Of a stretch of DNA of 64,000 nt, positions 60,680 to 61,079 are shown in pieces. The notes below the pieces were generated by a model that saw nothing but the letters and a program-made list of their open reading frames with translations, did not search any database and was not told the origin of the DNA. The stretch comes from Escherichia coli (lineage in GTDB: Bacteria; Pseudomonadota; Gammaproteobacteria; Enterobacterales; Enterobacteriaceae): the NCBI RefSeq assembly GCF_003334405.1, contig NZ_QOWM01000005.1. The stretch is one strand, 5' to 3'. A program made the position numbers and the translations under genes. Every line of letters starts with the position of its first letter. The first letter of the stretch is position 1.

Positions 60680-61079
60680 AGAAAATTCTTCCTTAAAGCA
60701 AATTTTGTTATTTTATTTAGCCAGATTGTTTTTGAGTTCTGTTTTCGGCTTTTATAATTACTGCAAGAAATAATTTTATATTTAGTGTGTTGTTTTTTAT
60801 CAGAATAAATAACGTCTTCTGATACGTTTAAAACGTCAGAAAGATAAAAATATCATGTGAATTAAAAAAAGAACAAGTAGAGCATTAACATTATCTTAAA
60901 TAATAAATAGAGGCAAAAAGATTATTTTCTTTTTGCGTTTCCTTTCAAATGAAAACGATCGTCGTCTAAAATCAGCAGTACCCCCGACAAACTCAGGGAT
61001 TTTGTGTATAATTGCGGCCTTTTTCGGCAATCTGCCGTTTTTTGGCGCTTTTGCCCTGCTGACTTTTGAGGAAATCCAC

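Follow-up and report, generated by a model that had tools for sequence, protein, structure and literature searches.

What lies in the long AT-rich gap between the divergent genes crfC and phnA of Escherichia coli, and does it hold anything besides the signals that start these two genes? An initial annotation of the DNA studied here, a 64,000-nt stretch of E. coli sequence (the window, to which coordinates refer unless stated otherwise), offered promoters for both genes, H-NS-bound DNA, or an unannotated small RNA or peptide. Our analysis indicates that the gap is probably a divergent promoter and leader region of an ordinary kind, with three parts and no gene of its own. The features that make up this reading are summarized in Table 1.

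Table 1. Features of the crfC-phnA spacer in window coordinates, with strand and the observations behind each assignment.
Feature	Position	Strand	Basis or remarks
Whole crfC-phnA divergent spacer	60680-61079	.	400 bp, GC 0.31
crfC leader	60680-60750	-	From RegulonDB-inferred start sites to ATG; conserved outward from ATG, 22 loci
crfC core-promoter box (putative), CAGTAATTATAAAAGCCGAAAAC	60741-60763	-	Nearly invariant across crfC-bearing genera
AT-rich centre	60771-60970	.	Fast-evolving; lowest GC; probable remnant of longer ancestral spacer
Perfect 9-bp A/U-rich inverted repeat, GCAAAAAGA / TCTTTTTGC, 6-nt loop	60913-60936	.	Escherichia-specific
Candidate distal crfC sigma-70 promoter, TTGAAA-16-AATAAT	60921-60948	-	Best consensus match, 10/12
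phnA/yjdM sigma-70 promoter (predicted), CCGACA-17-TATAAT	60984-61012	+	Consensus match and conservation
phnA leader (predicted)	61019-61079	+	Hairpin, U6, second weak hairpin, Shine-Dalgarno

The open reading frame of crfC (also yjdA or rdcA) occupies 58451-60679 on the minus strand, with its ATG at 60679, and phnA (yjdM) starts with an ATG at 61080 on the plus strand, leaving exactly 400 bp with a GC content of 0.3125. In MG1655 the counterpart is NC_000913.3 4326735-4327134, between yjdM and rdcA, and the window is reversed relative to that genome. The initial description of a 400-bp AT-rich gap between divergent crfC and phnA starts is accurate to the base, and the gap includes the lowest-GC stretch of the window: positions 60751-60950 have a GC content of 0.225, the minimum over all 200-nt segments of the 64 kb (mean 0.499, sd 0.062), and the minimum-GC 400-nt segment, 60581-60980, is also at the spacer. 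The homopolymer runs that had been noted are present as well (T6 at 60793-60798, A7 at 60864-60870, T6 at 61038-61043), but an excess over chance is not clear, as there are three runs of at least 6 nt vs. 0.87 expected from composition (P~0.06). We also considered these runs as slippage tracts and rejected the idea, given that they are not significantly enriched and that strain indels at 60710, 60792, and 60845 fall outside the T6 and A7 runs. RefSeq places no feature, ncRNA included, inside the spacer in MG1655 or in any of 25 sampled records.

The spacer sequence is found in 5413 of 5426 complete E. coli genomes, and full-length matches sampled from the species are 96-100% identical. To find relatives, we used a PhnA protein scan with one genome per species, which yielded 80 loci; 35 Enterobacterales loci were used for conservation on the phnA side. 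Genes for crfC and phnA also diverge from one another in Citrobacter, Leclercia, Enterobacter, Superficieibacter, Phytobacter, Pseudescherichia, and others, with spacers of 427-656 bp and GC contents of 0.36-0.43 in 17 such loci and spacers of 788-1182 bp in three further ones (Enterobacter sp. Ag1, Cedecea neteri, and Mangrovibacter). Because the same divergent layout recurs across genera, a long AT-rich spacer appears to be ancestral and not specific to E. coli. The 1182-bp spacer, seen in Enterobacter sp. Ag1 and Cedecea neteri, contains a 238-aa ORF on the crfC strand, which may be an inserted gene.

Conservation divides the E. coli spacer into three parts, two conserved ends and a fast-evolving middle (35 loci, 10 strains). 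The cross-genus alignment has strongly conserved blocks at both ends, and its middle consists of short boxes. Among 10 diverse E. coli strains, the phnA-side block (60971-61079) has no variable site in 109 positions, the crfC-side block has 7.7 variable sites per 100 nt, and the centre has 12 at 60771-60845 and 7.2 at 60846-60970. Coding sequences in the same strains have 1.5 variable sites per 100 nt for phnA (4.5 at third positions) and 5.3 for crfC (11 at third codon positions). Variation in the centre is thus similar to that at crfC third codon positions, and the core of the centre evolves at a roughly neutral rate.

Escherichia albertii provides a second view of the same division. In strain NBRC 107761 nearly all of crfC-yjcZ is deleted (window 58135-60621; 2447-2560 of the E. 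albertii locus) and the spacer is kept. Divergence from E. coli is about 24% over the crfC-side ~165 nt (an estimate from the alignment, with gaps counted), 3% in the phnA-side block vs. 17% at phnA third codon positions, and about 8% at 60846-60970 (also estimated from the alignment) vs. the same 17%. Since the left block decays in this crfC-deleted genome while the phnA block stays, we take the left block to be tied to crfC. The core box is among the sequences affected: in E. albertii GCCGAAAA has become GCCAAAAG, and TATAAAA is gone. Elsewhere, RefSeq gives crfC an internal stop and pseudogene status in the E. coli strains ATCC 8739 and Ecol_545, which suggests that some lineages can do without the gene.

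Two loci have unusual junctions. In E. coli 2023CK-01509, adiA is linked through an IS1A (1748-2583 of that locus) to sequence that begins 83 bp upstream of yjdM (window ~60997); the associated deletion takes out the genes from melR to the crfC side together with the predicted phnA -35. An apparent breakpoint at 60937 in another sequence, L002, was set aside as a chimeric metagenome-assembled contig, labelled 'uncultured Clostridiales', and not as biology: its positions 1-2857 are a GC-rich Clostridiales glycosyltransferase region fused to an E. coli phnA fragment encoding an identical PhnA, which looks like assembly or binning contamination.

Promoters for both genes, the first of the functions initially proposed, receive comparative support on each side of the spacer: at phnA a deeply conserved sigma-70 promoter and leader are predicted, and at crfC a conserved core and leader are linked to that gene. 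Promoter prediction agrees, with five promoter-like sites in the spacer vs. 1.3 expected. Among the published sources consulted, no experimentally mapped transcription start site (TSS) was found for crfC or phnA, and no mapped regulator; neither yjdM nor yjdA is mentioned in the accessible portions of the supplements of PMC7815308 and PMC3415461. In a text search of the sigma-70 holoenzyme SELEX study (PMC3946193), yjdM appears only in the row of the yjdN-yjdM spacer, and no constitutive promoter is seen for the yjdM-yjdA spacer.

Conservation locates the phnA promoter and leader with confidence, and the TSS is predicted to lie at about 61017-61020, giving a leader of ~61 nt. The predicted -35, CCGACA, matches the consensus at 4 of 6 positions and the -10, TATAAT, at 6 of 6, with a spacing of 17 bp. 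Few alignment columns are conserved at 90% or above in the 35 Enterobacterales loci; A61008 and T61012 (-10 positions 2 and 6) and the AG of the phnA Shine-Dalgarno are among them. In Pseudocitrobacter and Kluyvera, which do not have crfC here, homology to E. coli begins only at 60972-60984, so that the right-hand block appears to travel with phnA. The right ~110 bp (60971-61079) would therefore form a phnA unit made up of a sigma-70 promoter, a start at ~61019, a ~61-nt leader, and a strong Shine-Dalgarno. RNA-seq has detected yjdM transcription in exponential phase (bioRxiv 10.64898/2026.03.23.713779).

The predicted phnA leader carries a 5'-proximal hairpin, CGGCA-AUC-UGCCG (61025-61037), followed by U6 at 61038-61043, a weak second hairpin at 61044-61055, and the Shine-Dalgarno GAGGAA at 61068-61073. 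This two-hairpin layout is found in most genera with differing sequences, and RNAalifold gives four consensus pairs for the leader, three of which have one compensatory (double) change each; this is modest covariation. The stability of the entire leader is not unusual (fold z = -0.78). We infer that the first hairpin is a 5'-terminal stabilizing stem-loop. Leaders of the ompA type belong to mRNAs with such 5'-terminal stabilizing stem-loops, and the phnA leader resembles them in having a small GC hairpin, conserved across genera, a few nucleotides from its predicted 5' end. It differs from them in that the U6 after the hairpin gives it a weak intrinsic-terminator look, and in that the phnA 5' end is predicted.

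Immediately downstream of phnA, positions 61433-61809 contain four tandem REP/BIME units of ~100 bp, which score 95-111 bits against the Rfam family naRNA4 (RF02564). They constitute REP325, a known element to which a recent report assigns a role as terminator and stabilizer of yjdM. In the E. coli strains we fetched, yjdM and yjdN are not always equally far apart, and REP325 copy number is probably variable.

On the other side, the left ~90 bp (60680-60770) would form a crfC unit with a Shine-Dalgarno, an unstructured A-rich leader, and the core box. The Shine-Dalgarno is AAGGAAG at 60688-60694, and the A-rich leader is predicted to be unstructured (fold z = +0.43). The conserved core of this block is TAATTATAAAAGCCGAAAA, also given as TTTTCCACACGTAATTATAAAAGCCGAAA. 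When the core box is read on the minus strand, a sigma-70-like -10, TATAAA, abuts a sigma-28-like -10, GCCGAAAA; read on the plus strand, it contains a perfect TATAAT at 60753-60758. The box has no convincing -35 for sigma-70 or sigma-28. Its pattern of conservation shows that the box matters for crfC, with no indication of which sigma factor would use it. A candidate distal crfC promoter, TTGAAA-16-AATAAT, would give a start at ~60914 and a leader of ~235 nt; the motif is kept in E. albertii and in locus L003 and not in other genera.

RegulonDB, as the initial annotation had missed, already lists two inferred sigma-28 promoters in the spacer, yjdAp1 and yjdAp2, with the evidence 'human inference of promoter position' (PMC4183435 Table S3). 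Mapped to the minus strand of the window, their TSSs are 60735 (yjdAp1) and 60750 (yjdAp2), and the two promoters fall exactly on the conserved core, but FliA ChIP-seq did not confirm them (PMC4183435).

Between the two units, the middle ~200 bp would be loosely constrained AT-rich upstream DNA, left over from a longer regulatory spacer whose boxes appear to survive in Citrobacter, Enterobacter, and related genera. The middle boxes of other genera are 10-12 nt long and include AGCGTAGCnCA; CAGGATATATC; ATTTACCCACC...GAGGTAA; TCACCTTATCTGAA; GTnGCAATTTCC...AAAATATTC; and AGCATCGCTTAA...TGACAGG-N3-TGTCA. By alignment, E. coli retains only the fourth of these and part of the fifth, and the box common to the E. 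coli centre and other genera is ATTATCTTAAATAA at 60890-60903. Because the boxes are common to several genera, it is most parsimonious that the Escherichia lineage lost them, and the centre looks like a shrunken remnant of an ancestral spacer of 430-660 bp. Consensus folding of the middle blocks with RNAalifold gives essentially no structure on either strand (energy ~0), and for this reason the boxes look like DNA-level sites and not structured RNA. Spacers of the L005-L025 loci (e.g., L012, 2414-3000) contain the palindrome TGACAGG-N3-TGTCA together with AGCATCGCTTAA as candidate regulator sites.

Within E. coli, positions 60846-60970, the right half of the centre, are not unusually conserved; their better retention in E. 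albertii hints at function, and a loose role in control upstream of phnA is possible. The perfect inverted repeat in this half has a fold z of -3.0 on the minus strand and -1.9 on the plus strand and is not conserved outside Escherichia. The middle as a whole may supply an UP-element, curvature, or nucleoid-protein context (H-NS, Fis, or IHF type) and would separate the two promoters.

A stronger version of the last idea is that the centre is mainly a binding or silencing patch for H-NS or another nucleoid protein that represses crfC, phnA, or both. We regard this as possible but doubtful. The extreme AT content of the centre, the enrichment of promoter-like sites in the spacer, and a sequence that is loosely constrained and yet stays AT-rich are all consistent with such a patch, but a scan of the spacer found no match to the high-affinity nucleation motif TCGATAAATT within two mismatches. 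The boxes common to other genera are a further point against it, as they indicate that the DNA is ancestral and not horizontally acquired. A nucleoid-protein patch would in any case be a property of the middle part, compatible with a divergent promoter and leader region as the main explanation.

For the crfC unit, the competing proposal is that the conserved core holds a sigma-28 (FliA) promoter from which the gene is read, namely yjdAp1 with its -10 GCCGAAAA (60742-60749, minus strand). That sequence agrees with the -10 consensus GCCGATAA in 7 of 8 letters and is identical to the -10 of the genuine tsr promoter. Transcript data point the same way: yjdA RNA is given as 111 in the wild type and as 11 when fliA is deleted (PMC4203485 Table 2), the yjdA-yjcZ operon has been described as being under FlhDC/FliA control (PMC6510439), and an internal promoter ~230 bp from the end of the 2.2-kb crfC would not be an obvious cause of such a drop. 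FliA occupancy, however, speaks against a promoter in the core, as ChIP-seq gave no peak here and the study describes the FliA promoter upstream of yjdA as 'incorrectly predicted' (PMC4183435). Neither yjdAp1 nor yjdAp2 has a ChIP-seq mark in Table S3 of that study, and its qRT-PCR table has no row for an amplicon upstream of yjdA. The -35 is also poor: by our own count TCTTGCAG matches TAAAGTTT at 2 of 8 positions, 11 bp upstream, which is below our scan cut-off, and the element is poor in the cross-genus consensus as well. The real FliA site is at 58679-58706, inside crfC. Taken together, we judge sigma-28 transcription from the core to be improbable.

The internal site also accounts for published FliA signals that might be assigned to the spacer. 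Two of them, a peak for RpoF (sigma-28) in SELEX (4327160) and a FliA motif from ChIP-seq (4327146), were considered as spacer sites and rejected, since these coordinates are those of NC_000913.2. The published FliA motif TAAAGTTCTGGCAGAGCAGGTCGATGAA maps to 58679-58706 on the minus strand, in crfC near its 3' end and hence not in the spacer; in our own scan it is the top sigma-28 match of the whole window. This intragenic FliA promoter is known to drive yjcZ/rdcB. Papers on the GlnZ sRNA, IS26/Tn6242, and polyadenylation were likewise set aside, as they concern the rdcB ribosome-binding site, the crfC body, and the internal FliA promoter and not the spacer.

For the phnA unit, the alternative is that the first leader hairpin and its U6 (61025-61043) form a promoter-proximal attenuator, i.e., a regulated intrinsic terminator that controls phnA. 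The element fits the intrinsic-terminator pattern, with a 5-bp stem containing four GC pairs, a 3-nt loop, and U6, and a hairpin followed by a U-rich tract occurs at the equivalent position in many genera. Yet the stem has only 5 bp, its covariation support is modest, and its position does not suit a terminator: it lies downstream of the conserved promoter at about +6 to +25 of the leader, and these ~6-25 nt from the predicted start leave no space for an antiterminator. In addition, yjdM is absent from the accessible part of the 3'-end supplement of PMC7815308. Attenuation at this hairpin therefore seems to us quite unlikely, and a 5'-terminal stem-loop remains the preferred reading.

The proposal of an unannotated small RNA or peptide did not hold up, as the spacer has no Rfam match, no shared ORF, and no consensus structure, and polymorphism in its core is near-neutral. 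With Rfam models, nothing was found in the spacer at E<=10 or in the spacers of 18 other loci at the gathering threshold. A match to the Rfam sRNA STnc630 (171 bits) does occur in the E. albertii locus at 319-484 on the minus strand, on the proP-side flank and outside the spacer.

A small RNA in this region has nevertheless been put forward in another organism, and this is the one positive indication of such a gene. Ssr28, predicted in Shigella flexneri, is a 328-nt sRNA located between yjdA and phnA on the phnA strand, with an RT-PCR result of 'Yes' (PMC4782007 Table 1). It occupies the identical intergenic region and strand; the difference is that Ssr28 is a prediction from a promoter and a terminator with RT-PCR, whereas our comparative and population data carry no sign of an RNA gene. 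An E. coli sRNA of this kind (~330 nt, phnA strand) could start from TATAAT at 60753-60758 or from TTTAAA-18-TATCAT at 60827-60856, and it could end at the terminator-like hairpin at 60913-60936 or at 61025-61037 plus U6. Consensus-level promoter and terminator matches exist, and some transcription through the spacer was seen by RT-PCR in Shigella (PMC4782007).

We nonetheless consider such an sRNA very unlikely. RT-PCR by itself cannot distinguish an sRNA from read-through or from a long phnA 5' end, and the lack of an Rfam match is accompanied by a lack of ncRNA annotation in MG1655 and the other RefSeq records. The proposed RNA body varies near the synonymous rate, has no consensus structure, and reaches a folding z of only -1.9. 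E. albertii carries mutations in both candidate promoters, and the hairpin at 61025 lies downstream of the conserved phnA promoter. A specific form of the proposal, in which an independent ~290-330-nt phnA-strand ncRNA runs from TATAAT at 60753-60758 to the hairpin and U6 at 61025-61043 and the crfC core box doubles as the sRNA promoter, is highly improbable in our view. That a plus-strand TATAAT drives a phnA-strand RNA is disfavoured because the core box decays in the crfC-less E. albertii.

A small protein encoded in the spacer is the least credible option, to be expected almost not at all: ORFs exist mechanically (33 aa on the plus strand at 60672-60773, 44 aa on the minus strand from 61030, and the six-codon MKTIVV at 60949-60969), but no ORF is common to the spacers of the different species, single-base indels (60710) break the 33-aa ORF in E. 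coli strains and other Escherichia, MKTIVV has no upstream Shine-Dalgarno, and the similarity of the 44-aa ORF to other species is confined to conserved phnA promoter DNA.

Read as a divergent promoter and leader region, the spacer resembles other enterobacterial divergent sigma-70 promoter regions in having a core promoter and leader by each start codon with AT-rich DNA between them. It differs in being on the long side at 400 bp and in that its middle is the most AT-rich DNA of the window. It would be a standard divergent regulatory region, of little importance in itself. The boxes of other genera that are largely missing from E. coli do point to candidate regulator sites.

The comparison also bears on a puzzle in rdcA transcription, in that yjdA RNA is ~10-fold lower without FliA and yet FliA is not bound upstream; the dependence may be direct or indirect. 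Conservation narrows the crfC/rdcA control region to a core of ~25 bp, and the rdcAB operon feeds into c-di-GMP and biofilm control via DgcE.
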